Assembly: GCA_016927685.1 (NCBI GenBank)
Contig: JAFGMD010000012.1
Location: forward strand, 23,866 to 87,865
Direction: 5' to 3'
Length of the DNA: 64,000 nucleotides
DNA from: Candidatus Falkowbacteria bacterium
Lineage (GTDB): Bacteria; Patescibacteriota; Patescibacteriia; CAIXNZ01
Numbering within the stretch: position 1 is the stretch's first letter; every line of letters begins with the position of its first letter. The position numbers and the translations under genes are program-made. A model generated the notes under the pieces. The model had not been told where the DNA came from. It made no database searches and saw only the letters and a program-made list of their open reading frames with translations. Positions 3,640 through 55,135 of this stretch are shown here, piece after piece.

Positions 3640-6345
3640 TTATTTCAAACTCTTTAATTGCTCTTCCAGCTTTTCCATTTTCTCTTTCTGTTCTTTTAAT
3701 TTAAATTCCTCTTTTTCCACCACTTCTTTAGGCGCTTTTTCTACAAAATCTTTATTTTTCAATTTTTGTTCTAATGACTTTATAAAACCAGAAACACTTT
3801 TTATTTCAGAATTAATTCTTTCTTTTTCTTTTTTAATATCAACTAAACCTTCTAAGTGCAAACAAATTTCTCCCACACCTTCCAGAACATGTGAAACAGA
3901 ATTTTTAGGTTTGGATTTTTCAATTTCCAATTTATCCAATCGCGCTAAAAATATTATTACCTCTTTAACTTCCTCAAATCTTATTTTATCTAAATTTTTT
4001 CCAATTATAGATACTGAGACCTTTTTAGCGGGGTCCACTTTAAAGTCAGCGCGCAAATTTCTGATGGTCATCATAATCTCTTCAAATTTCCAAAATGGAT
4101 ATAAAATTTCTTTTTCAATTTTTTCTTTTTGTTCAGATTCTTTGCTTATTGGCCAGGATTGAACCATTAATAGATCTTTACAGCCAAAATTTGCCCAAAT
4201 TTCTTCAGTCACAAAAGGAATAAACGGATGCCACAAGATTAAAAGTTTGCCTAATATGTAAAGTAAAATATTTTCAGTATTTTCTACCAATTTGCTATTT
4301 GCCCTTTGCAATTTGCTAATCTCCAAATACCAATCAGCCAAATCAGACCAGGTAAAATTACGCAAAGCATCAGAAGCGCCAGAAAAATTAAAATTTTCTA
4401 AATCTAAAGTGATTTCTGCAGTAACTTGTTCCAGTCGAGCCAAAATCCACTCGTCAGCTAAAGTTTTTGGTCCTGGCTTTTCCTCAACTAATTTTATTTC
4501 TGAAACCGAACTTAAAATGTAGCGCGAGATATTCCAAAGTTTGTTAACAAAATTTCTAGCGCCTTCAACCTTTTCATCATATAATCTCATATCCATGCCT
4601 GCAGCCGTGCCCGAAATCATGGCTACGCGTAAAGCATCAGTGCCAAATTTTTCAATCAAATCAAGCGGATCAACAACATTGCCTAGTGACTTAGACATCT
4701 TTCTACCCTTTTCATCGCGAACTAAACCATGCAAATAAACTGTTTTAAAAGGAATGTCGCCAAGTATAAAAGTCGTTTGAATAATCATTCTGGCTATCCA
4801 GAAAAATAAAATGTCATAACCTGTTTCCATGACTGAAGTCGGATGAAATTGCATATCAGGTGAATTTTTCAGCCACTCCTCCCAAGTTTTATATTTTTTA
4901 TAATTTTTATCCAGCAAGGTTGAAAAGGTCCAAAGTCCAGAAGAAAACCAAGTATCTAATGTATCACCATCTTGAACCCAATCGCCTTTTGGCGCTTCTA
5001 GACCAACAAAAATTTCCTCATTTTTTTTACCTTTATCTTTATACCAAACAGGAATCGGATGCCCAAACCAAATCTGGCGCGAAATGCACCAATCGCGTAA
5101 ATTTTCCAGCCATTGATAATAAGTTTTTTCAAAACGCTCGGGAATGATTTTAATATCGCGCTCTTTTACTACTTGCAACGCAACTTCGCGAATTGTTTTA
5201 TTTTGAAAATATTTATTGCCAGCCAAAGTAACTTTTTTATTAACGCGCACAAACCATTGCAACGAGGGCAATGGTTCAATGGCCGAATCGCAACGGTAAC
5301 AAATGCTTAAATTCTGTTTTGTGTCTTCAATTTTTTCCATTAAGCCTTCTTTTTCCAACCACTTAACAAATTTATCTCTGGCTTCTTCAACCGTTAAGTC
5401 CTGATAATTTTTACCAGCTTCTTTGGTCATTTTGCCGTCCTCACCGATAACTTTAATTAATGGCAAATTATTTTTCTGGGCAATTTCATAATCAATAATA
5501 GAATGAGCTGGCGTCACGCCCAAAGCGCCTGTACCAAAATTCGGATCAACTGAATCTTCAGTGACGATTTTAATCTCTTGTTTGCCATGTCCCAAATCCA
5601 CAGTATAAGTTTTGCCAATATACTTTTTATATCTCTTGTCTTTAGGATTAACTGCCACAGCAGTGTCGCCTAATTTTGTTTCTGGTCGAGTTGTGGCAAT
5701 GGCAAAAGGAAAATCTTTTGAGTATTTAAAAGTATAGAGCTTGGCATTCACTTCTTTATATTCAACCTCATCGTCAGACAAAGTGGAATTACAACGTGGA
5801 CACCAGTTAACAATCCTATAATCTCGCTCAATTAGGCCTGCGTCATACATTTTAATAAAAGTGTATTTCACCACCTGCGTCAAGCCTTCATCAAGAGTAT
5901 ACCTTTCACGCGACCAATCACAGGATGAACCCATTTTGCGGACTTGCTGATTAATTGTTTTTTTTGATTCTTCGGCAAACTCTCTCACTTTTTGTAAAAA
6001 TTTTTCTTTGCCTAAATCATGGCGCGTCTTTTTCTCTTCTTTATAAAGGATGCTTTCAACTTTAGTTTGTGTAGCAATAGCCGCATGATCAGTGCCGGGT
6101 AACCACAAGGTTTTTTTACCCAATAAACGATTAAAGCGCACCATTAAATCCTGATAAGCCAACATGGTAGCATGACCTGTATGCAAAGTACCGGTGCGGT
6201 TTGGTGGTGGCATGGAAATGGAAAAATAATCACCATTTTTGGGCAATTTTAAGTTATCAGGGTTAAAATAACCCGACTCTTCCCACTTATGGTAAATTTT
6301 ATCTTCCACATCTTTAGGATTGTACGCTTTGGGAATTTCTTTCAT
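3640..6345 (-). CDS. valS: valyl-tRNA synthetase
   Basis: PPPNRTGTLHTGHA HIGH region, KMSKSLGNVVDP motif, C-terminal coiled coil, 901 aa. Confidence 0.93.
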   Translation of the reverse strand: MKEIPKAYNPKDVEDKIYHKWEESGYFNPDNLKLPKNGDYFSISMPPPNRTGTLHTGHATMLAYQDLMVRFNRLLGKKTLWLPGTDHAAIATQTKVESILYKEEKKTRHDLGKEKFLQKVREFAEESKKTINQQVRKMGSSCDWSRERYTLDEGLTQVVKYTFIKMYDAGLIERDYRIVNWCPRCNSTLSDDEVEYKEVNAKLYTFKYSKDFPFAIATTRPETKLGDTAVAVNPKDKRYKKYIGKTYTVDLGHGKQEIKIVTEDSVDPNFGTGALGVTPAHSIIDYEIAQKNNLPLIKVIGEDGKMTKEAGKNYQDLTVEEARDKFVKWLEKEGLMEKIEDTKQNLSICYRCDSAIEPLPSLQWFVRVNKKVTLAGNKYFQNKTIREVALQVVKERDIKIIPERFEKTYYQWLENLRDWCISRQIWFGHPIPVWYKDKGKKNEEIFVGLEAPKGDWVQDGDTLDTWFSSGLWTFSTLLDKNYKKYKTWEEWLKNSPDMQFHPTSVMETGYDILFFWIARMIIQTTFILGDIPFKTVYLHGLVRDEKGRKMSKSLGNVVDPLDLIEKFGTDALRVAMISGTAAGMDMRLYDEKVEGARNFVNKLWNISRYILSSVSEIKLVEEKPGPKTLADEWILARLEQVTAEITLDLENFNFSGASDALRNFTWSDLADWYLEISKLQRANSKLVENTENILLYILGKLLILWHPFIPFVTEEIWANFGCKDLLMVQSWPISKESEQKEKIEKEILYPFWKFEEIMMTIRNLRADFKVDPAKKVSVSIIGKNLDKIRFEEVKEVIIFLARLDKLEIEKSKPKNSVSHVLEGVGEICLHLEGLVDIKKEKERINSEIKSVSGFIKSLEQKLKNKDFVEKAPKEVVEKEEFKLKEQKEKMEKLEEQLKSLK

Positions 6346-6503
6346 CTAATTATAGGATTTATAGGAGCTATATGAGCTATAGGATGAACAGGAACTATAG
6401 GTTGAAAGAAAAACATCTCTGCCTATAGACTTTTAGCTCTTCTTATCCTTTAGCTCTTTTAGCTCTTATTTATTTAAAGTTATATAAAAATTTTACCAAA
6501 ATT

Positions 6504-6538
6504 AGCGGTTCTTGACAAGAATAACAATATAAGGTAAA
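6504..6538 (+). promoter_or_regulatory. sigma70-like promoter copy 1 (TTGACA-N17-TAAAAT)
   Basis: ttgacaagaataacaatataaggTAAAAT. Shares the 12-mer ttgacaagaata with copy 2. Confidence 0.5.
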
Positions 6539-6556
6539 AATATATTTCCTGCCTGT

Positions 6557-6586
6557 TGACAAGAATATGTTATAAAGATATACTTA
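6557..6586 (+). promoter_or_regulatory. sigma70-like promoter copy 2 (TTGACA-N17-TATACT)
   Basis: ttgacaagaatatgttataaagaTATACT, about 55 nt upstream of the 6644 start. Confidence 0.55.
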
Positions 6587-6643
6587 AATATTCTGACAAA
6601 AAACAATTTAGGATTTAGAATTTAGTATTTAGAATTTATTATC

Positions 6644-7777
6644 ATGGGGCTGACGCAAAATCAACAAATTTTTGAATTACTGAAAAAGAGTTCTCGGACT
6701 CTAATTTTGTTTCGCAAAAATTTTTCGGGCGACGCAGTATCATCTGCCTTAGCTTTATTTTTAATTTTAAAAAAAATGAATAAAAAGGCCGATATTATCT
6801 GCGAAAATTTCAATATTCCTCAAAGCTATGCATTTTTGCCTTATATTAAGGAAGTTAAATCAAATTTAGGTGGCTTAAAAAAGTTCATAATCAATCTGAA
6901 CTTAAGCGATACTAAACTTAAAGATTTTTCTTATGATATAAGGGGTAATAATTTGAATATCTATCTTACTCCAGAAGGCGGCTCTTTGGCTGAAAAGAAT
7001 ATCAGCTTCAAGTCAGGTAATTTCAAATATGATTTAATAATCACCTTAGACACCGATGATTTGGAATCTTTGGGTGAACTTTATGAAAAAAATACAGAAT
7101 TTTTCTTTAATACTCCGATGATAAATATTGACAGTAATCCGGAAAATGAACAGTATGGACAAATCAACTTGGTAGAATTGACCAAAACCTCAACTGCAGA
7201 AATTATTTTTAATTTAATAGAAGGATATGACATTAATTTAATGGATCAGGAAATTGCTACTTGTCTTTTGACTGGCATGATTTCCAAGACAAAAAGTTTC
7301 AGAACCCACAATATAACGCCGAGAACGCTTAATATTGCTAGTCAACTAATTTTAAATGGAGCGGAGCGCGATTTAATTATTCAAAATCTTTATCGCACCA
7401 AATCAATAAATACTTTAAAGCTCTGGGGCAAAGTTTTGACCAGATTAAAACTCGACCCACAATATAAAATCGCCTGGTCATATTTACAACAAAAAGATTT
7501 TTTGGAATTAAATGTCCAGAATCCTAATTTAAGCGAAGTCATAGAAGAACTTATCACTTCAGCGCCGGAAGCAGAAATTATTGTTTTATTTTACGAGAAT
7601 AAACACAACAGTATTTCCGGCGTTATATATACATCTAAAAATTACGACTCACTTTATCTGATAAAAAATTATGAACCATTTGGCAGTAAAACCCTGGCAG
7701 AATTTGAAGTTAATAAATCAGAACTGGTTGAAGCGCTCAGAGAAGTCATTGAAAATATAAAAAATAGTATTAAATAA
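6644..7777 (+). CDS. DHH-family phosphoesterase homolog (NrnA-like), catalytic motifs apparently degenerate
   Basis: N-terminal FSGDAVSSALAL resembles DHH motif I. No DHH tripeptide or GGGH (DHHA1) motif is visible. Confidence 0.55.
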   Translation: MGLTQNQQIFELLKKSSRTLILFRKNFSGDAVSSALALFLILKKMNKKADIICENFNIPQSYAFLPYIKEVKSNLGGLKKFIINLNLSDTKLKDFSYDIRGNNLNIYLTPEGGSLAEKNISFKSGNFKYDLIITLDTDDLESLGELYEKNTEFFFNTPMINIDSNPENEQYGQINLVELTKTSTAEIIFNLIEGYDINLMDQEIATCLLTGMISKTKSFRTHNITPRTLNIASQLILNGAERDLIIQNLYRTKSINTLKLWGKVLTRLKLDPQYKIAWSYLQQKDFLELNVQNPNLSEVIEELITSAPEAEIIVLFYENKHNSISGVIYTSKNYDSLYLIKNYEPFGSKTLAEFEVNKSELVEALREVIENIKNSIK

Positions 7778-7821: not shown

Positions 7822-8487
7822 TTATTTTTTTGATGCAAAGATATAATCCTGTATATCTTGCTTGGTCATTGAATCTTTATCATTTATATTTAATAAATCT
7901 TTAGCTCTGGGAAATTCAAAGTTAATTCCTTTCCCCTTTTTTGATTCATTAGCAATCATGGCTTTTACTTCCCCTGCTTTTTTATCAAAGAAAAAATCAA
8001 CAATCACGCCTTCCATTTGCAGATTACCAGCTCCGCCCGTTCTATCTTCTTGATAGGCTGGCAATTTCGCTCGTTGTTCATCATGTATCTGAAAATCAAC
8101 AATATCGCCCGGCTCATATAATTTGCCATTTTTCTTATCCCAATAAAAAGATAAATTTTCCGGATATATTACCCATGGCTCTTCACCTTGTAACCTAACA
8201 ATTGGCCCTGTAAATTTGCCTTTTTCAGATTCTGTTTTAATAACAATGATTTCTCCGTCAGCGCTTGCCCATTCTACCTTGCCCTTAACCATTCCAGCGC
8301 TTGTTTTTTCATCGCCTGGAAATAAATATTCAATCGTATCGCCTCTTTTAATATTTTCTCTTTTAGAAAGCATCTGCTCAAAATATTTACCTAAGCGCTC
8401 CAAAGCATCACCTTTTGTGTCCATTTCAGTTTCTCGTTTAGATTCAGGTGCTTTTTCTGTGCCTAATTTTAATTTTGGTTCTGGCAT
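7822..8487 (-). CDS. hypothetical protein (221 aa, acidic/lysine-rich)
   Basis: ORF only. Confidence 0.45.
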   Translation of the reverse strand: MPEPKLKLGTEKAPESKRETEMDTKGDALERLGKYFEQMLSKRENIKRGDTIEYLFPGDEKTSAGMVKGKVEWASADGEIIVIKTESEKGKFTGPIVRLQGEEPWVIYPENLSFYWDKKNGKLYEPGDIVDFQIHDEQRAKLPAYQEDRTGGAGNLQMEGVIVDFFFDKKAGEVKAMIANESKKGKGINFEFPRAKDLLNINDKDSMTKQDIQDYIFASKK

Positions 8488-8619
8488 AAATGCAAAATTT
8501 TAAAAAATTATACTTTAATTTTAGCAAATTTAAGCAAAAAAGTCAAGATTATTAAGAAACGTCACTCTTGAAAAAAAATTCATTTTAATGTAATATTTAT
8601 ATTAATTATGATAAGACCA

Positions 8620-8695
8620 GGGCGTGTAGCTCAGTCGGTTAGAGCGCTACCCTTATAAGGTAGATGTCGATGGTTCGAGTCCATCCACGCCCACC
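8620..8695 (+). tRNA. tRNA-Ile with anticodon UAU (TAT)
   Basis: Acceptor stem gggcgtg/cacgccc. Anticodon stem ctacc/ggtag with loop cTTATAa. T-arm gatggTTCGAGTccatc. No encoded CCA. Confidence 0.8.
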
Positions 8696-8778
8696 TACGC
8701 TCGTCGTAGCCTTGGCAAAGGCGAGCAAATTTAAAATATGATTTTGGCGAGCTTCGGTGGGCTTAGGCCCACATTCAA

Positions 8779-8816: not shown

Positions 8817-8892
8817 GGGCAATTAGCTCAGCTGGTTAGAGCGCATCGTTGACGTCGATGAGGTCAGTGGTTCGATCCCACTATTGCCCACC
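8817..8892 (+). tRNA. tRNA-Val (GAC)
   Basis: Acceptor stem gggcaat/attgccc. Anticodon stem catcg/cgatg with loop ttGACgt. T-arm cagtggTTCGATCccact. No encoded CCA. Confidence 0.88.
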
Positions 8893-8893
8893 C

Positions 8894-10079: not shown

Positions 10080-11597
10080 ATGATGTTAAATGAAAAACAG
10101 CAAAAATTAATTGCAGATTTTCTTAAGGATTTTAATAAAAATCCTGATTTTAAATTTGTCCAAAAACTGCAAAAGAAATTCAAAGAAGGAGAAGTTTATC
10201 TTGTTGGCGGTAAAGTACGCGACATTTTATTGGAAAAAACTTCTTATGATTATGATTTTGTTATCAGGAAAGTTGAACCCAAAGAGTTAGAAAAGTTTTT
10301 AGCCAAAGAAGGCGAAGTAAATTTTGTGGGTAAGTCATTTGGTGTTTTTAAATTCGTACCTAAAAATTACAAAGGCCTTGAGCCAATTGATATTGCTCTG
10401 CCCAGAACTGAACAGTCATTTATGACTGGCGGTTATAAAGATTTTGATGTGCAATCAGACGCCGCTTTGCCAATTGAGAAAGATTTGCAAAGACGCGACT
10501 TCACGATTAACGCGATGGCATTAAATTTAAAAACCAGCGAATTAATTGATCCATATAACGGGCTGGAAGATTTAAAAAATAAAACTATTAAAACCGTAGG
10601 AAATCCCAAAGAAAGATTCCAAGAGGATTACACCAGAATGCTGCGCGCCATTCGCTTTTCAGTACAATTATATTTTAAAATTGAAAAAAATACTTATCTG
10701 ACCGTCCAAAACAATGCGGCTAAAATTAGGACCATGAGCATGGAAAGAATCAACGAGGAATTTACCAAAATAGTATTATCACCCAATGCCGAATTTGGCC
10801 TGGAATTACTGCAAAAATCCAATTTATTAAAATATATTATACCTGAACTGGAAGAGGGCGTAGGCGTCTCCCAAAACAAGGCTCATATCTATAGCGTTTT
10901 TACTCATAGTGTCAAAGCCTTGGGCTTTGCGGCTCAAAGAAATTATAATTTAAATGTTCGTCTGGCTGCCCTACTTCACGACATAGCTAAGCCCATGGTT
11001 AAAAAAGGTGAAGGTCCAGATAGCACTTTTTATAATCATGATATTGTGGGTGGAAAAATCGCCAGAAAAATTTTAGCGCGCTTAAAATATCCAAATGATA
11101 TTGTAAATAAAGTGGCGCATTTAGTTCGCTACCATATGTTTTTTTATTCTATCGGCGAAATTACTGATGCGGCTATCCGCCGACTCTTGGTTAGAATTGG
11201 CAAAGATAATATTAATGAAGCAATCCAGCTACGTATCTGTGATCGTTTGGGTATGGGCAGACCAAAAGCCAAGCCATATAAATTAATGGAGTTGGAAAAA
11301 AGATTACATGAAGTGCAAATGGATCCCATTTCAGTTAAAATGTTAAAAATTGACGGCCTGGAATTAATGAAAATTTTAAACATGAAGCCTGGTCCTAAAA
11401 TCGGTTTACTTTTAAATGCGCTCTTATCAGAAGTTTTAGAAAACCCGAAAAAGAATACTAAGCCAAATTTGACTAAACGCTTAAAAGAGTTAAACAAATT
11501 ATCTGATACGGAATTAAAAAATATGTCCCCTGATATTGATAGATACGAAGAAGCTAAAAAACGCGAGTATTTTTCTAAATTAAAGTGGGTGGAATAG
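10080..11597 (+). CDS. cca: CCA-adding tRNA nucleotidyltransferase with HD domain
   Basis: Pol-beta nucleotidyltransferase head (LVGGKVRDILL) and HD motif (LLHDIAKP). Consistent with local tRNAs lacking encoded CCA. Confidence 0.8.
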   Translation: MMLNEKQQKLIADFLKDFNKNPDFKFVQKLQKKFKEGEVYLVGGKVRDILLEKTSYDYDFVIRKVEPKELEKFLAKEGEVNFVGKSFGVFKFVPKNYKGLEPIDIALPRTEQSFMTGGYKDFDVQSDAALPIEKDLQRRDFTINAMALNLKTSELIDPYNGLEDLKNKTIKTVGNPKERFQEDYTRMLRAIRFSVQLYFKIEKNTYLTVQNNAAKIRTMSMERINEEFTKIVLSPNAEFGLELLQKSNLLKYIIPELEEGVGVSQNKAHIYSVFTHSVKALGFAAQRNYNLNVRLAALLHDIAKPMVKKGEGPDSTFYNHDIVGGKIARKILARLKYPNDIVNKVAHLVRYHMFFYSIGEITDAAIRRLLVRIGKDNINEAIQLRICDRLGMGRPKAKPYKLMELEKRLHEVQMDPISVKMLKIDGLELMKILNMKPGPKIGLLLNALLSEVLENPKKNTKPNLTKRLKELNKLSDTELKNMSPDIDRYEEAKKREYFSKLKWVE

Positions 11598-13942: not shown

Positions 13943-14182
13943 TCATAAAAATGGACTTTCGGGACGATAATATAGATAGAAAAATAGACACAGAAAAACG
14001 AAATAACCACTCACTACGGTTAAAGGTGAAAGTGCCCAAGGGGCAAATAAAGTACTGATGGTAAATAATAATGCCACTACACCAAGGCCAAACCACAGTT
14101 TTCTCAAATTTTTGTTATTTTTTATTGATTCTTTATTTTTTTTCCATCCTTCATCCATTTTAGTCTCCTTTTTAATCTTCAA
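13943..14182 (-). CDS. small membrane protein (79 aa, 2 TM)
   Basis: ORF only. Overlaps the upstream gene by 11 nt. Confidence 0.45.
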   Translation of the reverse strand: MKIKKETKMDEGWKKNKESIKNNKNLRKLWFGLGVVALLFTISTLFAPWALSPLTVVSGYFVFLCLFFYLYYRPESPFL

Positions 14183-14384
14183 ATTTGTTTAATATCCAAT
14201 CAAGGCAGAGTTTGATTAAAAACAGCGCAAACGCGACTACAAAGATAAATGATATTGCATTTTTATTTAGCGCGTCCGGTCTGACAAAAATTGCAAGAAT
14301 AAGACAACAAAGCATTGCTAAAATGCTAAAGGGCATAATAAATGAACCAATAAATTTATAAAATTCAAAAATCGCTTTTTTCAT
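14172..14384 (-). CDS. small membrane protein (70 aa, 2 TM)
   Basis: ORF only. ATGA start/stop overlap with the upstream gene. Confidence 0.45.
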   Translation of the reverse strand: MKKAIFEFYKFIGSFIMPFSILAMLCCLILAIFVRPDALNKNAISFIFVVAFALFLIKLCLDWILNKFED

Positions 14385-15103
14385 TTTTTGCCCTCTTTTG
14401 GAATCTTGACCCTAAACACAAGCGAACCAGCTTTATACCATCCTGGATCTCGATCTTTATCACCCACAACTCTAATTACCGTAACTGGCAAGAGAACCAT
14501 TTTCCCATGAGAGATTAATCTTACGGACAAATCTCCCAATATACCCTCCTCTTGCCCAGCTTCTCTCTTGGGGATGCCTTTCTTCTGAAAATCAACTGGT
14601 GGATATATTGCTTTACCATAATGATTAGGCAAATAACCTATTGCGTTAATATGAATATAAAAAAAGCAATAACCTTTAGCTTTGGCCAGTTCGTCCAAAT
14701 ATCCAGTAAAAGAATTAATTGGCACATCAGTATTGTGCATGTTTGAATAAATGCTATCGTCGGCTGGATCAAAACAGTCTCCTCTTACATACCACCACCC
14801 AGGGTACCCGTGGCGTTCCGAATTCAATTTCACCTGAAAAAATAAATAATCTTTATCTGGCGCTTGTTCATGACTACTAGCAGGCGTCTGCACTTCGATT
14901 CTTGGTTTTTTTATATCAATTGAATAATTTTTATCTGGCACCTGCTCATTATTACTAATGGGCGCCCGTATTTCATTTCTGGGCATCTTTATATGAATGT
15001 CAGATATAATGAAAAAAATAGTATAAAATGTAATGCTCGCAAAAATAATTATGAATGTTATTCTGCATGTGGGCCTTTTACCAATACCAGTATTTTCCCT
15101 CAT
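14381..15103 (-). CDS. membrane-anchored hypothetical protein with internal tandem repeat
   Basis: GGGAGG SD. N-terminal TM. Duplicated segment APISNNEQVPDKNY / TPASSHEQAPDKDY. C-terminal domain has no recognisable match. Confidence 0.55.
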   Translation of the reverse strand: MRENTGIGKRPTCRITFIIIFASITFYTIFFIISDIHIKMPRNEIRAPISNNEQVPDKNYSIDIKKPRIEVQTPASSHEQAPDKDYLFFQVKLNSERHGYPGWWYVRGDCFDPADDSIYSNMHNTDVPINSFTGYLDELAKAKGYCFFYIHINAIGYLPNHYGKAIYPPVDFQKKGIPKREAGQEEGILGDLSVRLISHGKMVLLPVTVIRVVGDKDRDPGWYKAGSLVFRVKIPKEGKK

Positions 15104-15276
15104 TCTTTCCTCCCTTGTTTTTAGTATTCATCAAACCTTATCCTTATTTTATTGTCAAAGTTCTATCTGAATTCCAAATTATAGCATTACTCTGCAATAT
15201 TGTCAATGTTATTATAATTATTTTTTACCTTAAATTAGTGATTTTAGCCATATTTTAATTATTTTTATCAAAAATA

Positions 15277-15305
15277 TTGACAAATTTATCAATAATTGCT
15301 ATACT
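15277..15305 (+). promoter_or_regulatory. consensus sigma70 promoter (TTGACA-N17-TATACT) with ~90-nt leader
   Basis: ttgacaaatttatcaataattgcTATACT. The leader contains small hairpins caca-ctttaa-tgtg and tactt-cgacact-aagta. Confidence 0.55.
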
Positions 15306-15402
15306 ATATATATGAACTAACTGATCCCTGCTTTGGGTTACACACTTTAATGTGCGACAGCCATACTTCGACACTAAAGTATCAAAGTCGTAAAAAATTT
15401 AT

Positions 15403-16143
15403 ATGAACGAACAATTAACAAAACTGTTGCAAGATGCAGGATTTACAGAAAAAGAGGCCCTAATCTACATTGCCCTCTCTGAGCTTGGCAGTGGTTCAGT
15501 TACTCAAATAGCTGAACGAGCCAAACTTAAAAGATCAATCGTCTATTTGATTTTAGAAAGCTTAATTAAAAGAGGCTATGCTTCCGTTATCCCCGATACT
15601 AAAATTAATCGATATATAGCAATTGACCCGACTAAAATTTTTCAGGACTTAAAAAATATAACTGCAAATTTTAAAGAGTCTTTGCCTGCTTTATTAGCCA
15701 TTTTTAACCAATCAATCTGGAAGCCTAAAATAAATTATTTTGAGGGCAAAGAAGAAATAAGAAATGTCTACAGACAGACGGAATCGGCTAGAGAGGCATA
15801 TTATATTAGTAATGCCGAAGCGATTACTAAATATATGCCGGAAGAAATTGAACATTGGATTGATTATTTCCAAAATAAAATACCCACCTCTTATAAGTGC
15901 CAGCAAATTTTATCTAATACTCCCGATGACCATAGTTTTGCAGAAAAAGCGCAGCGTAAAAATGTGCAATTTAAATTTTTGCCCAAAGGATTAACTCTGG
16001 ATATGGATATTTCTTTATTTGATAATAAAGTTGCCTTAACTTCTTTGAAAGACCATCTTTTTCTTGTTGTTATTGAATCAAAGGCTTTTTATAATTCCAT
16101 GAAAACTATTTTTGATTTACTTTGGAAACAGGGAGTGAAATAA
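15403..16143 (+). CDS. TrmB-family transcriptional regulator
   Basis: N-terminal wHTH FTEKEALIYIALSELGSGSVTQIAERAKLKRSIVYLILESLIKRGYAS, typical of TrmB. Confidence 0.7.
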   Translation: MNEQLTKLLQDAGFTEKEALIYIALSELGSGSVTQIAERAKLKRSIVYLILESLIKRGYASVIPDTKINRYIAIDPTKIFQDLKNITANFKESLPALLAIFNQSIWKPKINYFEGKEEIRNVYRQTESAREAYYISNAEAITKYMPEEIEHWIDYFQNKIPTSYKCQQILSNTPDDHSFAEKAQRKNVQFKFLPKGLTLDMDISLFDNKVALTSLKDHLFLVVIESKAFYNSMKTIFDLLWKQGVK

Positions 16144-16144
16144 A

Positions 16145-16175
16145 TAAAAAAGTCCCGCTACGCGGGACTTTTAAT
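16145..16175. terminator. bidirectional terminator (gtcccgc tac gcgggac)
   Basis: 7-bp GC stem with flanking A and T runs. Confidence 0.7.
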
Positions 16176-16177
16176 TT

Positions 16178-16792
16178 TTAATGCTCGTAAATTAATCTGA
16201 CGGAAACTATTTCTCCATCTATTGATGGCGACCAGTCATAGGCTGTCCAAATTTTCCAATTGCCAAGTCCAATATGCGGTCCTAAGGCAAATTCGCTTAA
16301 TTCCCCTTCCTCGGCATTGCCAAAAAGCTCCATGCTGACGCCAAAATTGACATCGTCTTTTAGGGCGCGGTTGTATTCTGTCCAAAAATAAAATTGATAA
16401 GGAAAAACATCAACCGGGATATAATAGCCACCTTCTACGAAAATGTTATTCACATCTTCATTGCCCCAATAATAATCTGCCCAAACTGAAGCTGTAATAG
16501 CCATCCCGCCACCTGTTTCATTTAATGTGCCGGCTAAAAGCCAAAGTGTCAAATCATCAGATATATTGAACTGGGGTCCAAAATAAGTGAATAAGGCGTT
16601 ATAACCATCAAGCGTGCCGAAAAGATCAACTGCGCCTAAGAGCGAATTTTTCTTTTCGCCAAATTCAAGAAATTCGTGTTTCAAGGTGATATCGTATTGG
16701 CCTTCATAAGTCAGTTCATCTTCTTCGCTGGAAAAGGCCCTTGCTGGCATGAGTAAAAAAAACAGAAACAGTACTGCCAAGAGTCTTTTCAT
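16178..16792 (-). CDS. secreted aromatic/beta-rich hypothetical protein (signal peptide ...PARA|FS)
   Basis: Cleavable signal peptide and alternating aromatic pattern. Codon composition is visibly GC-richer than neighbouring genes. Confidence 0.55.
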   Translation of the reverse strand: MKRLLAVLFLFFLLMPARAFSSEEDELTYEGQYDITLKHEFLEFGEKKNSLLGAVDLFGTLDGYNALFTYFGPQFNISDDLTLWLLAGTLNETGGGMAITASVWADYYWGNEDVNNIFVEGGYYIPVDVFPYQFYFWTEYNRALKDDVNFGVSMELFGNAEEGELSEFALGPHIGLGNWKIWTAYDWSPSIDGEIVSVRLIYEH

Positions 16793-16863
16793 TTTCTTCC
16801 TCCTTTATTTATAAAATTACCAGATGCTTCATCTTAACAAATATAAAAAATTTGTCAATAGAA

Positions 16864-16898
16864 AAAGCCCGCCTGGTAAAAACCAAAGCGGGCTTTGT
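16864..16898 (-). terminator. terminator (agcccgc ... gcgggct)
   Basis: Stem-loop with T-run on the minus strand, just downstream of the 16904 stop. Confidence 0.6.
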
Positions 16899-16903
16899 TT
16901 GAG

Positions 16904-17530
16904 CTAAAGGTTAAATTTTCGATGAGCTAATATACAAGTCTTGCCATGCCAAAGTTCGTCTTCATAGGGATAAAGTTCAAGAATGCGATCGTTCTCGTAT
17001 TGGACTGAAATATTGGTCTCATGTCGGCACGAACAGACATAACGGAAATCATCACCGACAGTCAAGGCCGATTTAAGGGCATAAATCCGGATCTCTGCTC
17101 GCCTCATTATCGGATAAGTCGCATCGAACATGAGTAGCTCCGAAATTTCAGAGGCCTCAAAGCCCAAAATATCCAACTGCTCCAAAATTTTCTTGGGTAC
17201 CCTGACGGATTTGTGGAAATGAACCAAAAACAGCTCTCTGCCATAAAAGTATCCCTTTCCTTCAAGTGAAAAGTGTTCTTCGGTGATATTATCATTAACA
17301 AAGTCGTAATTCCCAGACTTAATCATTTTAGCTAGCGGTACATAGCTAAATAAATTGCTAACTTCATAGGGTCCGCTTACTTCGATACTCCTAATGAGGC
17401 ACGAAATTTTAAAGGCCAATTTCTTATCCTTGCGCAAATTCGTAAGGTGTTCGCGCGTGACGCCCAGATGTGCCAACGCTTCAAGCGTTGATACCATCTC
17501 GCTGGAAGGTAATTCTTGCAGTAGTCCCAT
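16904..17530 (-). CDS. hypothetical cytoplasmic protein (208 aa) with C/H cluster (CSCRH...HGKTCILAH)
   Basis: AGGAGG SD 8 nt upstream. GC-richer than the local genome background. Confidence 0.55.
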   Translation of the reverse strand: MGLLQELPSSEMVSTLEALAHLGVTREHLTNLRKDKKLAFKISCLIRSIEVSGPYEVSNLFSYVPLAKMIKSGNYDFVNDNITEEHFSLEGKGYFYGRELFLVHFHKSVRVPKKILEQLDILGFEASEISELLMFDATYPIMRRAEIRIYALKSALTVGDDFRYVCSCRHETNISVQYENDRILELYPYEDELWHGKTCILAHRKFNL

Positions 17531-31777: not shown

Positions 31778-31931
31778 ACCCTATTAAACTAAATTGAATT
31801 AAGCTTTTGAAAATAGTCAAAAATCATTGACCTCTTTCAGTAGCTTAATTGGAGAAAAATCTCCATAAAAATATAGTAGGATCTTTGAAACAAGAAACAA
31901 ACCAAACATAAATTTTCCGAAGGAGGAAAAA

Positions 31932-32765
31932 ATGAAAAAAACATACGCTTCCTTTGTCGCGCTGATTTGCGCGATGTCGCTTCTGTTCGTAACCTTGATT
32001 CCGAACCAAGCTTTGGCAGCCACAAAACCGGCAGTCAATGAAGAGGCAGCGACCTCAATGATTCCCCTGAACCCGGACTGGGAAATTCAATATTTCCCGA
32101 CCGGATTCTCGACAGTCACCCGAGAGATTGAACAACAGATCCAGCCCCTGCTGGCGTGGCACAAAAGCCACCCGGAGGATATGTTCATCGTGATGGGCGC
32201 GGTGTCTGATAAACCATTCAGCAAGGATAGCGACAATAAACAGATGCAGTTGGCCACGGACCGGGCAATGGCTGTTCATAAGTATCTTACGGACAATGCA
32301 GTGCCGAAGAACAAAATCGTCATTCTGAAGTCCAATATGATTGCCATTGAAAAAGGCAACTATCGAAAAAATCAAAAGGTAATGGTATGGCATGCATATC
32401 ATCCCGAGCTATCTTCGACGCCATTGGTTACCGAAAATAAGCCATGTCCGCCTCAGCAGGAATGTCCAGTGCCAAAGTGCGACAAGTGCGATAAAGCACC
32501 GAATTACATCGTCAATGTACCGCCCCAATGCACCAAAGAGGAGTCGGATGTGATTGATCCTATCACCGGCATCCGGACCATCACAATCAACGTGACTTGC
32601 CCTGACGAGGTGCAAAAGGAAATGTGGTGCAAAGCTCATAAAGGCGCTTGCACGGCACTGATCATCGGCGGAATCGTCCTCATCGGAGGCATTTTGGCCA
32701 TTGGCTGCGCCCAGGGCGCCAGCGGACCCAATGGGTCCGGCGGTGATGCGGGTTTCTGTTTTTAA
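31932..32765 (+). CDS. secreted Cys-rich protein with C-terminal TM/Gly-rich tail
   Basis: Signal peptide, CPPQQECPVPKCDKCDK cluster, and C-terminal ALIIGGIVLIGGILAIGCAQGASGPNGSGG tail. Confidence 0.65.
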   Translation: MKKTYASFVALICAMSLLFVTLIPNQALAATKPAVNEEAATSMIPLNPDWEIQYFPTGFSTVTREIEQQIQPLLAWHKSHPEDMFIVMGAVSDKPFSKDSDNKQMQLATDRAMAVHKYLTDNAVPKNKIVILKSNMIAIEKGNYRKNQKVMVWHAYHPELSSTPLVTENKPCPPQQECPVPKCDKCDKAPNYIVNVPPQCTKEESDVIDPITGIRTITINVTCPDEVQKEMWCKAHKGACTALIIGGIVLIGGILAIGCAQGASGPNGSGGDAGFCF

Positions 32766-32868
32766 CCATCCTAAGCTACTTAACCGGGTATACATTCGTG
32801 TGTACCCGGTTTTTCTTATATAAAATATGCTGAAATTAGCATAATTTTAATAATTAAGTTAACCACTC

Positions 32869-32897
32869 TTGACAAAATCATTTTCTTATGCTACAAT
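32869..32897 (+). promoter_or_regulatory. island cassette D promoter (TTGACA-N17-TGcTACAAT)
   Basis: Same promoter/leader block as cassette C. Confidence 0.6.
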
Positions 32898-33008
32898 ACC
32901 CTATTAAACCTGTAAAAGGTTTTCAATGAAATATATAGGCAATTAGTTGTTTGCGAGATAAAGGGTCTTTTAAAACAAAATTCCAAAATTGGAAAAGGAG
33001 AAGATAAA

Positions 33009-33833
33009 ATGAAAAAGATAATGATGGCTCTTTTGGTTTCTTTGTCCGTGGTTTTCGCGGCCTGCGAAGGCGGCGACTACAATGATCACTCCTCCCATGA
33101 CTACGACCCCGATGAAATCTGCGGCAACGGCGTCTGCGGCAATGGTGAAACCCACCAGAATTGCCCGGCTGACTGCGACGCAGATTCTGAGCCGGTCTGT
33201 GGCAATGGGATCTGCGAAAATGGCGAGAATGAGAGAAACTGCTTTGAGGATTGCGGCACCACGCCCTGCACCGACGCCAATGAGAACGGCGTCTGTGATG
33301 ATGCCGAATATATCGGCATCTATTGCTACAGCAATACGGAGCTGGACGCAATCTATGGCGACACTGTCCACTATGGACAGTTTAGCTCGCCAAGCGAAAC
33401 TCCTGGAGTATGGGAGGCAGAAAACGATGTCCCTGGATTCATCGAATCTGGCGACACGATTTGCTTCACTACTCCGAGGCCATTGCCCGAGGTAGAGCAC
33501 GGCTATGAGTCACTCTACGCTGATGTGACAGCAGGGCCGTTTTCAGCCGGACAATGGATAGGTTTCAGTGTGGCACCAAAAAGCATTAACGTCCTCAGGG
33601 GCAACACCATCACATCTCGACCGATTCTGCCCTACTTCGCCGGGATGGGCTATCATGCCTGTCTTGACGAAGAGCAACCGCTATGTTGGACCAACCTATG
33701 CACGATCAGCGCAAGCGGTGTCTGGACCTGCTACGATGACGGCGTCCCCGACAGCGAATGCGGTTTGACAAAAACTTGCCAGACCTGCGTTCTGCACTGC
33801 CGGGAACTCTACAACATTTTGCTCTCCCCCTGA
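33009..33833 (+). CDS. lipoprotein with CGNGxCxNGEnxxNCPxDC repeats and a C-terminal domain paralogous to the C-terminus of the 34151 gene
   Basis: Lipobox VFAAC followed by EGGDYND, compared with AACKGGNYND in the next gene. Shared C-terminal signature YCYSN...GMGYHACLDEE versus WCYTSP...GSGYFVCLTDD. Confidence 0.7.
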   Translation: MKKIMMALLVSLSVVFAACEGGDYNDHSSHDYDPDEICGNGVCGNGETHQNCPADCDADSEPVCGNGICENGENERNCFEDCGTTPCTDANENGVCDDAEYIGIYCYSNTELDAIYGDTVHYGQFSSPSETPGVWEAENDVPGFIESGDTICFTTPRPLPEVEHGYESLYADVTAGPFSAGQWIGFSVAPKSINVLRGNTITSRPILPYFAGMGYHACLDEEQPLCWTNLCTISASGVWTCYDDGVPDSECGLTKTCQTCVLHCRELYNILLSP

Positions 33834-34150
33834 ATTTTTGCCTATCAAAGGCCCGCGTACTGAAAAAGTACCCGGGCCTTTTTCTTTTCTAGAAAAACCT
33901 AATTTATTTCATCAAATAAAACAACTTGACAAATCCTAAAAATATGCTAAGATATGCTATTCTGAAAAAGTAAAGGAAATTCAGGGATAATAGCCCTATT
34001 TTATATAGAAACAGGTGTTTTGTTGGCTCATTAAAATAAAATCAAAAAACCCTCTAAATTGAGGGTGAGGAGGAAAAAATGGAACTATGGGTTTCAAAGG
34101 AAACGTGCCATAATGGCAATAAAAAAAATGACCAAAAGGAGGTCAAAAAA

Positions 34151-37762: not shown

Positions 37763-37782
37763 TTCTTTGTAACACATTTGTA

Positions 37783-37818
37783 ACACAAGGGCTTGCGCAA
37801 CTGCGCAAGCCCTTTTTC
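37783..37818 (+). terminator. terminator after giant lipoprotein gene (gggcttgcgca ac tgcgcaagccc + T-run)
   Basis: 11-bp stem followed by tttttctttt. The same cctttttctttt tail follows cassettes A and D. Confidence 0.8.
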
Positions 37819-37870
37819 TTTTCCAAAATTAAACTTTACAGAAAGCCAAAATCTAAGTAAAATAAAATAT

Positions 37871-38860
37871 ATGACTACAAAAAATAAACAAATAGTTTTA
37901 TCGGGCATACAGCCGACTGGCGAACTCCATATTGGCAATTATTTGGGCTCGCTGAAAAATTTTATAGAGCTGCAGGACAAATATCAATGTTATTTTTTTC
38001 TGGCAACTTATCATTCAATTACAGAAAATTACAATCCCAAAGAAAAGCATAAACAAGTTTTAGATTTGGCTGCAACGTATTTAGCAGCAAAACTTGATCC
38101 TAAAAAATGCATTATTTTTGACCAAGCAGATGTGCCAGCATGCACAGAATTAGCCTGGATTTTTAATAGTATTACACCTATTAATGAATTAGAAAGAATG
38201 ACCCAGTATAAAGATAAAGCTGCTAGGCAAATTAAAAATATTAATACTGGTCTTTTTGATTATCCTGTTTTACAAGCAGCTGACATTTTACTTTATCATG
38301 CCAACTTTGTACCGGTTGGCGCTGACCAATTACAGCACTTGGAATTGACTAATGAAATTGTCAGATGGTTTACCAATAAATTTGGAGAATATTTTCAACC
38401 CATTAAACCTCTGCTAACAAAAATGCCAAAAGTCATGTCCCTTATTGAGCCGGATAAAAAAATGAGTAAAAGTTTGGGTCCCTCGCATTATATTGCCATA
38501 AATGATGAACCGGATATTATTTTAGCCAAACTAAAAAAGGCAGTGACCGGCATGGGTACTGAAGAACAAATTCCAGCTGGCGCTCAAAATTTAATGACTC
38601 TGCTTTCGGAATTTGGCACAAAAGAAGATGTGGTTTATTTTGAAAATCAGATAAAAAATAAAACTATTAAATATTTTGAGCTTAAAGAAAAGCTGGCTAA
38701 AAATATTAGTGATTACTTTGCTGATTATCGAGCTAAATATAAAGAATTACAGGATAAGCCAGATTATATTGAAAAAGTGCTTAAACAAGGCGCTAAAGAG
38801 GCCCAAAAGGTTGCGCAAAAGACTATAAAAGAGGTTAAGGAATTAATTGGCGTGGCCTAA
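37871..38860 (+). CDS. trpS: tryptophanyl-tRNA synthetase
   Basis: Start at MTTKNKQIVLSGIQPTGELHIGNYLG (HIGH region). The ORF-track start at 37793 adds a non-conserved extension that overlaps the upstream terminator. Confidence 0.88.
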   Translation: MTTKNKQIVLSGIQPTGELHIGNYLGSLKNFIELQDKYQCYFFLATYHSITENYNPKEKHKQVLDLAATYLAAKLDPKKCIIFDQADVPACTELAWIFNSITPINELERMTQYKDKAARQIKNINTGLFDYPVLQAADILLYHANFVPVGADQLQHLELTNEIVRWFTNKFGEYFQPIKPLLTKMPKVMSLIEPDKKMSKSLGPSHYIAINDEPDIILAKLKKAVTGMGTEEQIPAGAQNLMTLLSEFGTKEDVVYFENQIKNKTIKYFELKEKLAKNISDYFADYRAKYKELQDKPDYIEKVLKQGAKEAQKVAQKTIKEVKELIGVA

Positions 38861-51566: not shown

Positions 51567-51629
51567 ATCTTGACAATATTATTATAATACATTAACATTA
51601 AATTATTGATGTTATATAAGGAGGATGGA

Positions 51630-52187: not shown

Positions 52188-52203
52188 TGCTATGGCTTTT
52201 TTA
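52173..52203. terminator. bidirectional terminator (agccatagc ttaat gctatggct + tttttt) shared by convergent genes
   Basis: Perfect 9-bp stem. Confidence 0.75.
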
Positions 52204-55135
52204 TGCCAATCCAAATTTTTAAACCATTTATTTCGAATTCTTTCTGTTCATCTTTAGCTAATTTTACTTTTTCATCTAAAATATCTTTTGATAAAGTACT
52301 CTTTTTTATTTCTTCCTTGGCCTCGCTGATTGCTTTTAATAAATCTTTATCTTTTGTTTGATAATACACATTAACAGAATCTCCTAAGCTTAAATTTAAA
52401 TCTTTTCTAAGGGCATTGATAAATCTAATTAATTCCCTGATATGCCCCTCTCTCTGTAAATCAGCTGAAATTTTAATATTAAGGGCAACTTTATACAGCT
52501 CATCTGCGCCTATTATATAATTCTTTTCTGTCGGTAATTTTTCGGAAATCTCTACCACCTTAACATTTACCTCCTCCTTAATCAATTCCAAAAATTCATT
52601 GGGCAAAGATTTTTTTGTAATAATCAATTTGTTTAACGGTTGCCTAATTTTAACGCCCGCTTCTGCTCTGGCAGCCAAAGCTTGCTCAATTAATTTTCTC
52701 GCTATTTCCATTTGTTCTAATAATTCTGACTTGATCAAATCAGGTGCCACGCTTGGCCAATCTTCCAAATGCACGCTTTCTTTTTTGCCGTGTAATTTTT
52801 GATAAATATTTTCAGCTGTAAAAGGTAAAAATGGAGCACAAATTTTAGCTAAGTTTAATAAAATATAATGCATTGTGGCTAAAGCATGCGCCTTATCATT
52901 TTGATCATCTCCTTTAAACCTTTCTCGACTGCGTCGTAAATACCAAGTTGATAATTCATTAATAAAGTCGGATATTGGTCGCGCTGCCCGCGTTAAATCA
53001 AAAATATCCATCTCTTCCGTAACTTCTTTTAATAAAATATTTAATTTAGCTACAATCCATTTGTCTAAAATATTTTCCAAATCATTTGGTCTTAAATTTT
53101 TATCAAAATTCATGCTTTTTTCATACAAAGCATAAAAACTGTAAATATTATTCAAAAGCATAACGGTTTTTCGCAGAGTCTCTTCGACTAAGCGATCCGA
53201 AAAACGATAATCTTCACCCATGGGCGTTGAAACTAGCAAAAAATAGCGAATCGCATCTACGCCTGCTTTATCAATTAAAATATTTGGTTCGGTATAATTT
53301 TTCAATCTCTTAGAAAGTTTTTTTCCGTCTTCTGCCAAGATTAATCCATTTGCAATTACATTTTTATATGCTGGTTTATTAAATAGCGCTGTCGCTAAAA
53401 CATGCAAAGTATAAAACCAACCGCGGGTTTGATCCAGACCCTCGCCAATAAAATCACAAGGAAAGCCTTTCTCAAATTTTTCTTTATTTTCAAAAGGATA
53501 ATGATACTGAGCGTAAGGCATAGAACCAGATTCAAACCAGCAGTCAAAAACTTCTTCTATGCGATTCATTTCCCCGCCGCAAGCGCATTTAAATTTAATT
53601 TCATCAATATAGGGTCTATGCAAATCTTTTATTTCTGAATTTTCCAATTCTTTAATACTGCCCACAACCTTATAAGTATTGCATTTTTCACATTGCCAGA
53701 CAGGAATTGGCGCACCCCAAAATCTATTTCTGGAAATATTCCAGTCCTTAGCGCCTTCCAGCCATTTACCAAAACGACCCTCTTTAAGATGCTCCGGTAC
53801 CCAACGAATGCCTTCATGTTTTTTTCCATTAGGATCAGTTATTCTTAATTCATTATTGTTATATACCAAATTATCTTTAAATTTTGTGACTGCCACATAC
53901 CAAGCGTCTAACGCATAATAAATTAATGGGCTGTCACAGCGCCAGCAAAAAGGATAATCATGCTCAATTTTATCGTTTATGCCGGATATTAAAATATTTT
54001 TATCTTTTAAATATTCCATTATTTTCAAATCAGCATCTTTTACAAAAACTCCTGCCCAATCTTTTACTTCTGACTTAAACTTGCCCTCTGAATCAACTGT
54101 CATTAAAACTGGCAAATTATACTTTCTGCCTATTTCCATATCTTCTTCGCCAAAAGCCGGGGCAATATGAACTATGCCCGTGCCATCTTCTGTCGTAACA
54201 AAATCTCCCTCAATTACATAATAAGCTTTTCTATCTAACTTTTTAAAATAATCAAAAATCGGTTCGTATTCCCAATTTAAAAGGTCGGCTCCTTTAAATA
54301 ATTCAACAAGCTCATAATGCCCCAAATATTTTTCAAGAGTGTCTAATCTGGCTTTGGCCAAAATATAATATTCCCTGCCGACTTTGATTTTCGCATATTC
54401 AACTGACTTGCCTACGGCTAAAGCTACATTTGAAGGCAATGTCCAGGGCGTTGTAGTCCAAACCAAAAAGTAAGCATTATCCTGATCTTTTATTTTGACC
54501 TTGAAATAAATTGAAGGATCTTTTGCTTTCTGATAATTTTGATTAACTTCAAAATTCGATAATGGAGTACCACAGCGAGGGCAATAAGGGGCTACGCGAT
54601 AATCCTTATATACCAAACCTTTATTAAAAAGTTCTTTAAAAACCCACCAAACCGTTTCAGTGTATTCTTTATTCATGGTCGCATATTGATTGGAATAATC
54701 AGCCCAACGGCCGATGCGCCTGAAAGTATCCTTCCACTCATCTACGCATGTAAAAACAGATGCTTGACAGCGATCATTAAATAATTTAATGCTGTCATAT
54801 TCATTTTTAGCCAATCCTAAAATTTCTTTCTTTGATTTTATTTTTAATTCCTTTTCAATCAGGTTTTCTACGGGCAAACCATGGCAATCCCAACCAACAG
54901 TACGCTCAACCTTAAATCCGCGCATAGTCCAATAACGCGTTACTGTATCTTTTAACGTAGAGGCTAAAAGATGGCCATAATGTGGTGAACCCGAAGCAAA
55001 TGGCGGACCATCATAGAATGAAAAAACTGGCGACTTCTCGCGCGCCTTAACTGATTTTTCAAAAATTTTATTTTTCTCCCAAAAAGCAATGATTTCTTCT
55101 TCTTTTTGGGCGAAATTTGATTTATTTTCTGACAT
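52190..55135 (-). CDS. ileS: isoleucyl-tRNA synthetase, type 2 (eukaryote/archaea-like)
   Basis: YDGPPFASGSPHYGHLL HIGH region (the type-2 'PPFA' form) and KLSKRLKNY KMSKS motif, 981 aa. Confidence 0.88.
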   Translation of the reverse strand: MSENKSNFAQKEEEIIAFWEKNKIFEKSVKAREKSPVFSFYDGPPFASGSPHYGHLLASTLKDTVTRYWTMRGFKVERTVGWDCHGLPVENLIEKELKIKSKKEILGLAKNEYDSIKLFNDRCQASVFTCVDEWKDTFRRIGRWADYSNQYATMNKEYTETVWWVFKELFNKGLVYKDYRVAPYCPRCGTPLSNFEVNQNYQKAKDPSIYFKVKIKDQDNAYFLVWTTTPWTLPSNVALAVGKSVEYAKIKVGREYYILAKARLDTLEKYLGHYELVELFKGADLLNWEYEPIFDYFKKLDRKAYYVIEGDFVTTEDGTGIVHIAPAFGEEDMEIGRKYNLPVLMTVDSEGKFKSEVKDWAGVFVKDADLKIMEYLKDKNILISGINDKIEHDYPFCWRCDSPLIYYALDAWYVAVTKFKDNLVYNNNELRITDPNGKKHEGIRWVPEHLKEGRFGKWLEGAKDWNISRNRFWGAPIPVWQCEKCNTYKVVGSIKELENSEIKDLHRPYIDEIKFKCACGGEMNRIEEVFDCWFESGSMPYAQYHYPFENKEKFEKGFPCDFIGEGLDQTRGWFYTLHVLATALFNKPAYKNVIANGLILAEDGKKLSKRLKNYTEPNILIDKAGVDAIRYFLLVSTPMGEDYRFSDRLVEETLRKTVMLLNNIYSFYALYEKSMNFDKNLRPNDLENILDKWIVAKLNILLKEVTEEMDIFDLTRAARPISDFINELSTWYLRRSRERFKGDDQNDKAHALATMHYILLNLAKICAPFLPFTAENIYQKLHGKKESVHLEDWPSVAPDLIKSELLEQMEIARKLIEQALAARAEAGVKIRQPLNKLIITKKSLPNEFLELIKEEVNVKVVEISEKLPTEKNYIIGADELYKVALNIKISADLQREGHIRELIRFINALRKDLNLSLGDSVNVYYQTKDKDLLKAISEAKEEIKKSTLSKDILDEKVKLAKDEQKEFEINGLKIWIGIKKP

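Follow-up and report, generated by a model that had tools for sequence, protein, structure and literature searches.

A conserved tRNA-Ile gene with a genome-encoded UAU anticodon in a Candidatus Falkowbacteria bacterium and its relatives

In a 64,000-nt stretch of DNA from a Candidatus Falkowbacteria bacterium (the whole stretch is hereafter named the window), we found a tRNA-Ile gene with a genome-encoded UAU anticodon. This gene is under strong structural selection across a clade of the Candidate Phyla Radiation (CPR), small-genome bacteria whose MAGs are labelled Falkowbacteria, Buchananbacteria or Uhrbacteria, and, judged from its sequence, very probably specifies a functional minor isoleucine tRNA. 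To keep AUA (Ile) apart from AUG (Met) is a well-known difficulty of the genetic code, for which bacteria are said to rely almost universally on TilS and lysidine; tilS is regarded as essential and as a potential drug target. Each lineage that naturally uses a plain UAU anticodon shows an alternative solution, and raises the question of how misreading of AUG is prevented. UAU systems of this kind had been described in bacteria before, and what is added here, modestly, is the conservation across a CPR clade together with AUA being commoner than AUG. No paper linking CPR or Patescibacteria with TilS, lysidine or tRNA-Ile(UAU) was found in the literature searched. In its present form, the finding carries a phenomenon known from other bacteria into a new phylum-level group and reveals no new mechanism; it would gain weight if a clade-wide loss of tilS were confirmed.

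Structure of the tRNA-Ile(UAU) gene

ARAGORN reported a tRNA-Ile with the anticodon (tat) at 8620–8695 on the plus strand, the final two nucleotides of the call being 'CC', and placed the anticodon at position 35 of the gene. The Rfam tRNA model scored 77 bits for 8620–8693 against a gathering score of 29, and the cloverleaf was the exact minimum-energy fold of the same segment (−28.9 kcal/mol, z = −3.4 compared with shuffles). The initial annotation had described a tRNA-Ile with a genomically encoded UAU anticodon at 8620–8695 and had proposed a check with tRNA finders; its strings and coordinates were correct on direct reading, the two programs agreed on anticodon position and isotype, and together with the fold they confirmed the description. 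A wrong anticodon call was considered and rejected, as ARAGORN, Rfam, the fold and direct reading all agree.

The acceptor stem is GGGCGTG/CACGCCC, the D arm GCTC-AGTCGGTTA-GAGC, the anticodon arm CTACC-CTTATAA-GGTAG, the variable loop ATGTC and the T arm GATGG-TTCGAGT-CCATC, followed by the discriminator A73. The anticodon loop reads C32-U33-U34-A35-U36-A37-A38, so that a canonical tRNA body carries T-A-T at positions 34–36, as a bacterial tRNA-Ile(UAU) does. Position 34 is T in the window gene and in all aligned homologues, in place of the C34 of the lysidine system, and the gene is a continuous 74-nt cloverleaf lacking an intron of the eukaryotic type. The positions of this gene and of its neighbours are collected in Table 1.

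Table 1. Features of the window discussed in the text
Feature	Position	Strand	Basis and remarks
Valyl-tRNA synthetase	3640..6345	-	NCBIfam valS, 992 bits; synteny anchor, in divergent orientation to the DHH gene and the tRNAs
DHH/NrnA-like phosphoesterase	6644..7777	+	Pfam DHH; synteny anchor beside the tRNA pair
Promoter-like site TTGAAA-17-TAATAT (putative)	8568..8596	+	Consensus scan; ends 23 nt upstream of tRNA-Ile
tRNA-Ile(UAU)	8620..8693	+	74 nt, positions 1–73; ARAGORN, Rfam, fold, covariation
Anticodon T34-A35-T36	8654..8656	+	Within loop CTTATAA (8652–8658); direct reading
tRNA-Val(GAC)	8817..8892	+	ARAGORN, Rfam; conserved downstream partner of tRNA-Ile(UAU)
CCA-adding tRNA nucleotidyltransferase	10080..11597	+	Pfam PolyA_pol, PolyA_pol_RNAbd, HD, tRNA_NucTran2_2
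Type-2 isoleucyl-tRNA synthetase (IleRS2)	52190..55135	-	NCBIfam, Pfam and PDB matches

In E. coli, the identity set of tRNA-Ile comprises A73, A35, U36, A37, A38, C4–G69, U12–A23 and C29–G41 (PMC9976931). All of these are present in the window tRNA except C29–G41, which is A29–U41 here, so that two of the three minor stem elements (C4–G69 and U12–A23) are kept and the tRNA has the features of an isoleucine acceptor. C4–G69 was found in 11 of the 12 aligned tRNA-Ile(UAU) sequences. Because the E. coli elements were defined for a type-1 IleRS, their relevance to the type-2 enzyme encoded in the window is presumed.

The putative promoter upstream of the gene is only a consensus match. At the other end, A73 is followed by CCT (8694–8696) and the 3′ end of tRNA-Val reads ACCC (8891–8893), so the CCA is incompletely encoded in both cases. 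A CCA-adding enzyme would be needed, since neither tRNA gene of the window encodes a full CCA. The candidate encoded nearby is syntenic in relatives, and its best match to an NCBIfam CCA tRNA nucleotidyltransferase model (252 bits) lies below the equivalog cutoffs. A full ACCA is encoded in some relatives (L008, L149 and L151). In two others, L144 and L145, two CCA-enzyme-like genes stand in tandem (14157–15737 and 15913–17499), and these may be a split pair of a CC-adding and an A-adding enzyme.

Conservation in related genomes

Loci of relatives were retrieved through two anchors, the neighbouring DHH protein and ValRS. At 10 of the 11 related loci (L008, L145, L146, L148, L149, L150, L151, L152, L154 and L156) tRNA-Ile(tat) is present with tRNA-Val(gac) downstream of it, and the DHH proteins at the pair-bearing loci are 46–73% identical to that of the window, the one next to the pair in L008 being 46% identical. 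By source label these relatives are, among others, Falkowbacteria, Buchananbacteria, Uhrbacteria and 'Patescibacteria group'. Of the species representatives in the genome collection, the nearest is a further Falkowbacteria MAG, whose ValRS is 86% identical to that of the window. For the most part the surrounding block is kept, with ArgRS-TyrRS-ValRS, the DHH gene, both tRNAs, QueA, CCA enzyme, Rlu, Gmk or Cmk, and L19. ValRS adjoins the DHH gene in relatives too. QueA was of no use as a synteny anchor in L008, where it does not adjoin the tRNAs whereas the DHH gene does.

An alignment of 12 tRNA-Ile(UAU) sequences formed the basis of the covariation counts. The anticodon loop CUUAUAA and A73 were invariant in all 12, every one of the 252 pair cells held a standard pair, and 14 of the 21 stem pairs showed changes on both sides (compensatory). 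None of 500 shuffles reached the observed values, and slid controls paired at 22–44%. With pairing at 100%, compensatory changes in two-thirds of the stem pairs and the tRNA pair kept at all but one locus, the element behaves as a gene under selection and not as a pseudogene. The closing pair of the acceptor stem varies: C1–G72 replaces the usual G1–C72 (CCGC...GCGG-A) in L146 (11467–11540), L148 (18475–18547) and L154 (1986–2059), and G1–U72 is found in L067 and L156. L067 is an unrelated contig with an additional tRNA-Ile(TAT), the TrpRS there being just 29% identical to that of the window.

The exception among the related loci is L155 (GCA_016214745.1), in which tRNA-Val(GAC) is present and tRNA-Ile is absent at the syntenic spot. 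In this Falkowbacteria locus, tRNA-Ile(UAU) is replaced by a stretch (5200–6640) that is rich in GC and apparently frameshifted and in which no gene was called; it could reflect an insertion, an assembly chimera or a relocated tRNA.

Two further variations were seen around the anchors. A family-less 221-aa ORF (7822–8487, minus strand) lies between the DHH gene and tRNA-Ile in the window; the DHH gene abuts the tRNA in L008, and different small ORFs occupy that spot in other relatives. ValRS, of 901 aa in the window, is enlarged in some relatives, with 986 aa and a His_Phos_1 match in L150 (6933–9893) and 1079 aa in L008 (9998–13237).

Use of the AUA codon

The initial annotation had called for the AUA codon frequency, and we counted codons over 47 window ORFs (18,463 codons). 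AUA occurred 422 times, that is 22.9 per 1000 codons, compared with 16.7 for AUG and 14.0 for AUC, and made up 24.5% of the isoleucine codons. IleRS has 17 of them, ValRS 11 and UvrA 13. Usage above 10 per 1000 codons has been classed as high (PMC12514573).

We then counted the residues found in homologues opposite the window AUA codons, leaving out homologue positions that are themselves ATA-coded. These were I in 31%, V in 17%, L in 15% and M in 4.7% of cases, a profile like those of AUU and AUC and unlike that of AUG, opposite which M made up 35%. The prevalence of I, V and L with M rare shows that AUA is used as isoleucine in the window; AUA is also frequent, and the genome needs an efficient decoder for it.

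The isoleucyl-tRNA synthetase

The description of the window IleRS as a type-2 enzyme proved right. Its ORF matched NCBIfam ileS with 950 bits (MupA/MupB-type matches, 806 and 751 bits), and Pfam assigned it tRNA-synt_1, Anticodon_1 and a C-terminal DUF5915 (residues 872–980), with no match to zf-FPG_IleRS, the Zn-binding domain. The best PDB matches were P. megaterium IleRS2 (8c8u, 787 bits) and the T. thermophilus enzyme (1ile, 784 bits), followed by structures of eukaryotic cytoplasmic IleRS at 707–762 bits, whereas the type-1 structures 1ffy and 8c9e scored only 352 and 345 bits. An ARD3-type C-terminal domain for anticodon recognition (DUF5915), the missing Zn domain and the greater closeness to archaeal and eukaryotic IleRS all place the enzyme with IleRS2. 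The DUF5915 match spans only positions 91–194 of the 195 of the profile, and the protein is ~50 aa shorter than P. megaterium IleRS2; from its sequence, it may be a variant of IleRS2 that lacks the INS subdomain, a part of IleRS2 described recently (bioRxiv 10.64898/2026.02.03.703510).

IleRS2 occurs in roughly half of bacteria, mostly alongside TilS (bioRxiv 10.64898/2026.02.03.703510), and the enzyme type is therefore no sign of a dedicated adaptation, though it is compatible with recognition of UAU. Taniguchi et al. suggested that the eukaryote-type IleRS accepts UAU as eukaryotic IleRS does (PMC3575796). On the other hand, P. megaterium IleRS2 is more stringent than IleRS1 in its reading of the anticodon (bioRxiv 10.64898/2026.02.03.703510), so that acceptance of U34 by a bacterial IleRS2 cannot be assumed.

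Decoding of AUA with or without TilS

No TilS-family match was obtained with Pfam or NCBIfam among the window ORFs of at least 120 aa, and no ORF in the window or in the 1.14 Mb of fetched loci contained [ST]GGxDS, the PP-loop motif by which TilS binds ATP. Likewise, no CAU tRNA was detected in the 64 kb of the window (ARAGORN and Rfam) or in ~200 kb from relatives of the clade. On the strength of the deep fixation of the UAU gene, the high AUA usage and the reduced genome, we lean towards the view that tilS is absent from the genome; the presence of tilS in ~98% of bacterial genomes (PMC12514573) and the precedent of redundancy in L. plantarum weigh against it. tRNA-Ile(UAU) is probably the main AUA decoder of the lineage, and possibly the sole one.

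The alternative that survives best is that the genome holds tilS and tRNA-Ile2(CAU) elsewhere, with a lysidine tRNA and the UAU tRNA both reading AUA, and we regard this as a serious possibility. Besides the prevalence of tilS just cited, the 64 kb in view are a part of the genome in which these genes need not lie, and redundant CAU and UAU tRNAs-Ile are on record for lactic acid bacteria (refs 44 and 45 of PMC9976931). Taniguchi et al. proposed such a redundant stage as an evolutionary intermediate (PMC3575796). In the unrelated contig L067, moreover, a CAT tRNA sits 10 nt upstream of the TAT tRNA. Against redundancy stand the searches described above, which yielded neither tilS nor a PP-loop ORF nor a CAU tRNA, the high AUA usage, and the fixation of the UAU gene over a divergence at which a neighbouring protein falls to 46% identity; strongly reduced CPR genomes would also be expected to disfavour long-term redundancy. 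As to L067 itself (4–163 of a 71.6-kb metagenome contig from a sample shared with L145), its upstream CAT tRNA has an A31–C39 mismatch and is either a tRNA-Met or of the Ile2 type.

A broader reading can be advanced tentatively, namely that a class-level CPR branch (the genomes labelled Falkowbacteria, Buchananbacteria and Uhrbacteria, which we take to be the GTDB class ABY1) has abandoned TilS and lysidine, with AUA read solely by tRNA-Ile(UAU) together with IleRS2 and AUG misreading avoided by means so far undescribed for bacteria with IleRS2. A property of the unusual CPR ribosome or a U34 modification would be the candidates for the latter. If this were true, the branch would be by far the largest natural bacterial group without lysidine. 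The absence of tilS would make it a broad natural test bed both for the recognition of U34 by IleRS2 and for the discrimination of AUA from AUG by the ribosome or by wobble modification, and would matter for annotation pipelines and for the completeness marker sets applied to CPR genomes.

Other explanations considered

The gene might be a pseudogene or a recent accident, arisen by a position-34 mutation in a tRNA-Ile2(CAU) or tRNA-Ile(GAU) gene and now unused. A single C-to-T or G-to-T change would give the UAU anticodon, and in a metagenome pattern scan with the same 5′ body that permitted C or T at position 34, at least 120 contigs matched, with CAT in 119 and TAT in one of the 120 contigs among the matches listed. 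The 119 listed CAT contigs were judged unrelated by sequence, and the one new TAT tRNA among the matches listed was that of L067, so the scan says little about the ancestry of the tRNA. The initial annotation had allowed for a pseudogene, and this is contradicted by the covariation across relatives. The stem pairing kept throughout, the compensatory changes at 14 stem pairs and the invariance of the loop (T34 in all 12 homologues included) and of A73 exclude a pseudogene or recent accident for practical purposes, and the conserved synteny and the promoter-like site upstream point the same way. Some of the contigs from the scan (L026, L031, L043, L045, L048, L065, L100 at 25–63, L125 and L128) carry only the 5′ half of a CAT tRNA, beyond which the sequence is unrelated, and these halves may be duplicated attachment sites of integrated elements.

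An altered code or another identity, in which AUA would be reassigned (many mitochondria read it as Met, for example) or the tRNA would be charged with an amino acid other than isoleucine, is highly improbable. An unmodified UAU could in principle read both AUA and AUG, but the residues aligned with the window AUA codons are those of an isoleucine codon, their profile resembling AUU and AUC and not AUG, and A73, A35, U36, A37, A38, C4–G69 and U12–A23 are all of the Ile type (PMC9976931).

That the tRNA is no core gene and arrived with a phage or mobile element as a supplement to AUA decoding deserves hardly any credence: phages often carry tRNAs for AT-rich codons and the family-less ORF lies between the DHH gene and the tRNA, but the neighbours are housekeeping genes (TyrRS, ValRS, DHH, QueA, CCA enzyme, Rlu and Gmk) in a block that is syntenic across the clade, and no integrase or repeat was seen.

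A model for the reading of AUA

Taking tRNA-Ile(UAU) as a functional minor isoleucine tRNA, we propose that it would be transcribed from its own putative promoter and that the CCA-adding enzyme, whose gene lies 1.4 kb downstream, would complete its CCA end. The IleRS2 of the window would charge it through A35, U36 and A73 with tolerance of U34, a proposal in keeping with the natural acceptance of UAU-type tRNA-Ile by the eukaryotic relatives of IleRS2. U34 would then pair with the A of AUA. Such pairing would read AUA directly and make the lysidine step unnecessary for this tRNA; and as the gene has T and not C at position 34, TilS would have no substrate in it.

It is a reasonable inference that an adaptation of the wobble base, the ribosome or IleRS is needed against misreading of AUG, as the initial annotation had put forward. 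The best precedent would be an unmodified U34 that binds AUG weakly on its own ribosome, as in M. mobile and in a B. subtilis suppressor (see below). Two enzymes encoded in the window belong to families that modify tRNA or RNA. Among the NCBIfam models, a U32-family protein (50346–51566, minus strand) best matches that of TrhP, the prephenate-dependent tRNA U34 hydroxylase, with 418 bits against a cutoff of 534; its gene lies ~600 nt from ileS, with a family-less 193-aa ORF (51606–52187) between the two. The other is a pseudouridine synthase of the RluA family, encoded in synteny with the two tRNAs. A role of either as modifier of U34 is speculative, and both most likely have other substrates. 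Uridine-5-oxy modifications widen wobble pairing and would worsen AUG misreading.

Other features of the window

The GC content of the window ranges from 31 to 48% in 4-kb windows and is ~34% over most of it. The housekeeping genes are typical of CPR (TyrRS, ValRS, QueA, CCA enzyme, RluA-family enzyme and Gmk, as well as UvrA, RNase J, TrpRS, RNase P RNA, RuvA and IleRS). The RNase P RNA is of the bacterial class A (38914–39303, plus strand, 183 bits) and directly follows the TrpRS gene (37793–38860). A compositional island at 31900–38000, with 42–48% GC compared with ~34% elsewhere, contains two ORFs, one OmpA-like and the other of unknown family, as well as the gene of a 1227-aa protein with ~10 Big_7 Ig-like repeats (34079–37762). 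AUA usage is much lower in the island genes, and the island may be of foreign origin.

Comparison with known systems

Bacterial tRNA-Ile(UAU) is known from M. mobile, M. haemofelis, M. suis, Bifidobacterium, Neorickettsia and lactobacilli, and 19 species in tRNADB-CE and 371 metagenomic tDNA-Ile(TAT) had been catalogued by 2013–14 (PMC3575796, PMC4013482, PMC9976931). Such tRNAs were still termed 'rare cases' in 2026 (bioRxiv 10.64898/2026.02.03.703510). The initial annotation had called them rare and known from a few reduced genomes; the rarity stands, but the second part understates their spread, given the lactobacilli, the catalogued species and metagenomic genes, and the fixation in a CPR clade.

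The canonical system of tRNA-Ile2(CAU) and TilS performs the same task, the reading of AUA as isoleucine, with a similar tRNA body, and among the matches listed in the metagenome scan many CAT tRNAs have the 5′ half GGGCnTGTAGCTCAGnnGGTTAGAGC in common with the window tRNA-Ile. It differs in the C34 of its gene, where the window gene has T34, and in its dependence on tilS, which was not found in the window. A UAU anticodon on an Ile body was also obtained in a B. subtilis tilS-deletion suppressor (tRNA-Ile1 G34U), in which the unmodified U34 gives strong binding to AUA and weak binding to AUG on the ribosomes of B. subtilis itself (Kohrer et al. 2014, PMC3919564). That was a laboratory mutation, whereas the window gene is naturally fixed and conserved.

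The eukaryotic cytoplasmic tRNA-Ile(UAU) is charged by an IleRS of the same structural class (type 2) as that of the window. Its anticodon is pseudouridine-A-pseudouridine, and the pseudouridine at position 34 depends on the intron of the gene. The eukaryotic genes thus contain introns, whereas the window gene is intron-free.

In Lactobacillus plantarum and other lactobacilli, a bacterial tRNA-Ile(UAU) is likewise recognized by IleRS, and coexists there with tilS and tRNA-Ile(CAU) (PMC9976931). M. mobile resembles the window lineage in having a genome-encoded UAU tRNA-Ile that reads AUA without lysidine and a small AT-rich genome; its UAU anticodon is unmodified, and AUA and AUG are discriminated at the level of the ribosome (PMC3575796). 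However, the M. mobile IleRS is of type 1 with a specific Arg865 change in the Zn-binding domain, whereas the window IleRS is of type 2 and has no such domain. Furthermore, the absence of tilS, the unmodified U34 and the ribosomal rejection of AUG are experimental results in M. mobile, whereas they would be predictions for the window lineage.

The closest architectural match is with Bifidobacterium and Neorickettsia, which lack tilS and combine tRNA-Ile(UAU) with a eukaryote-type IleRS (PMC3575796), that is, with the type-2 (eukaryote/archaea-like) enzyme also encoded in the window. These bacteria belong to other phyla (Actinomycetota and Alphaproteobacteria respectively), and the absence of tilS is established in them and no more than somewhat likely in the window lineage. 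The UAU gene of the latter is shared by an entire CPR clade, with 23 AUA per 1000 codons in the window.
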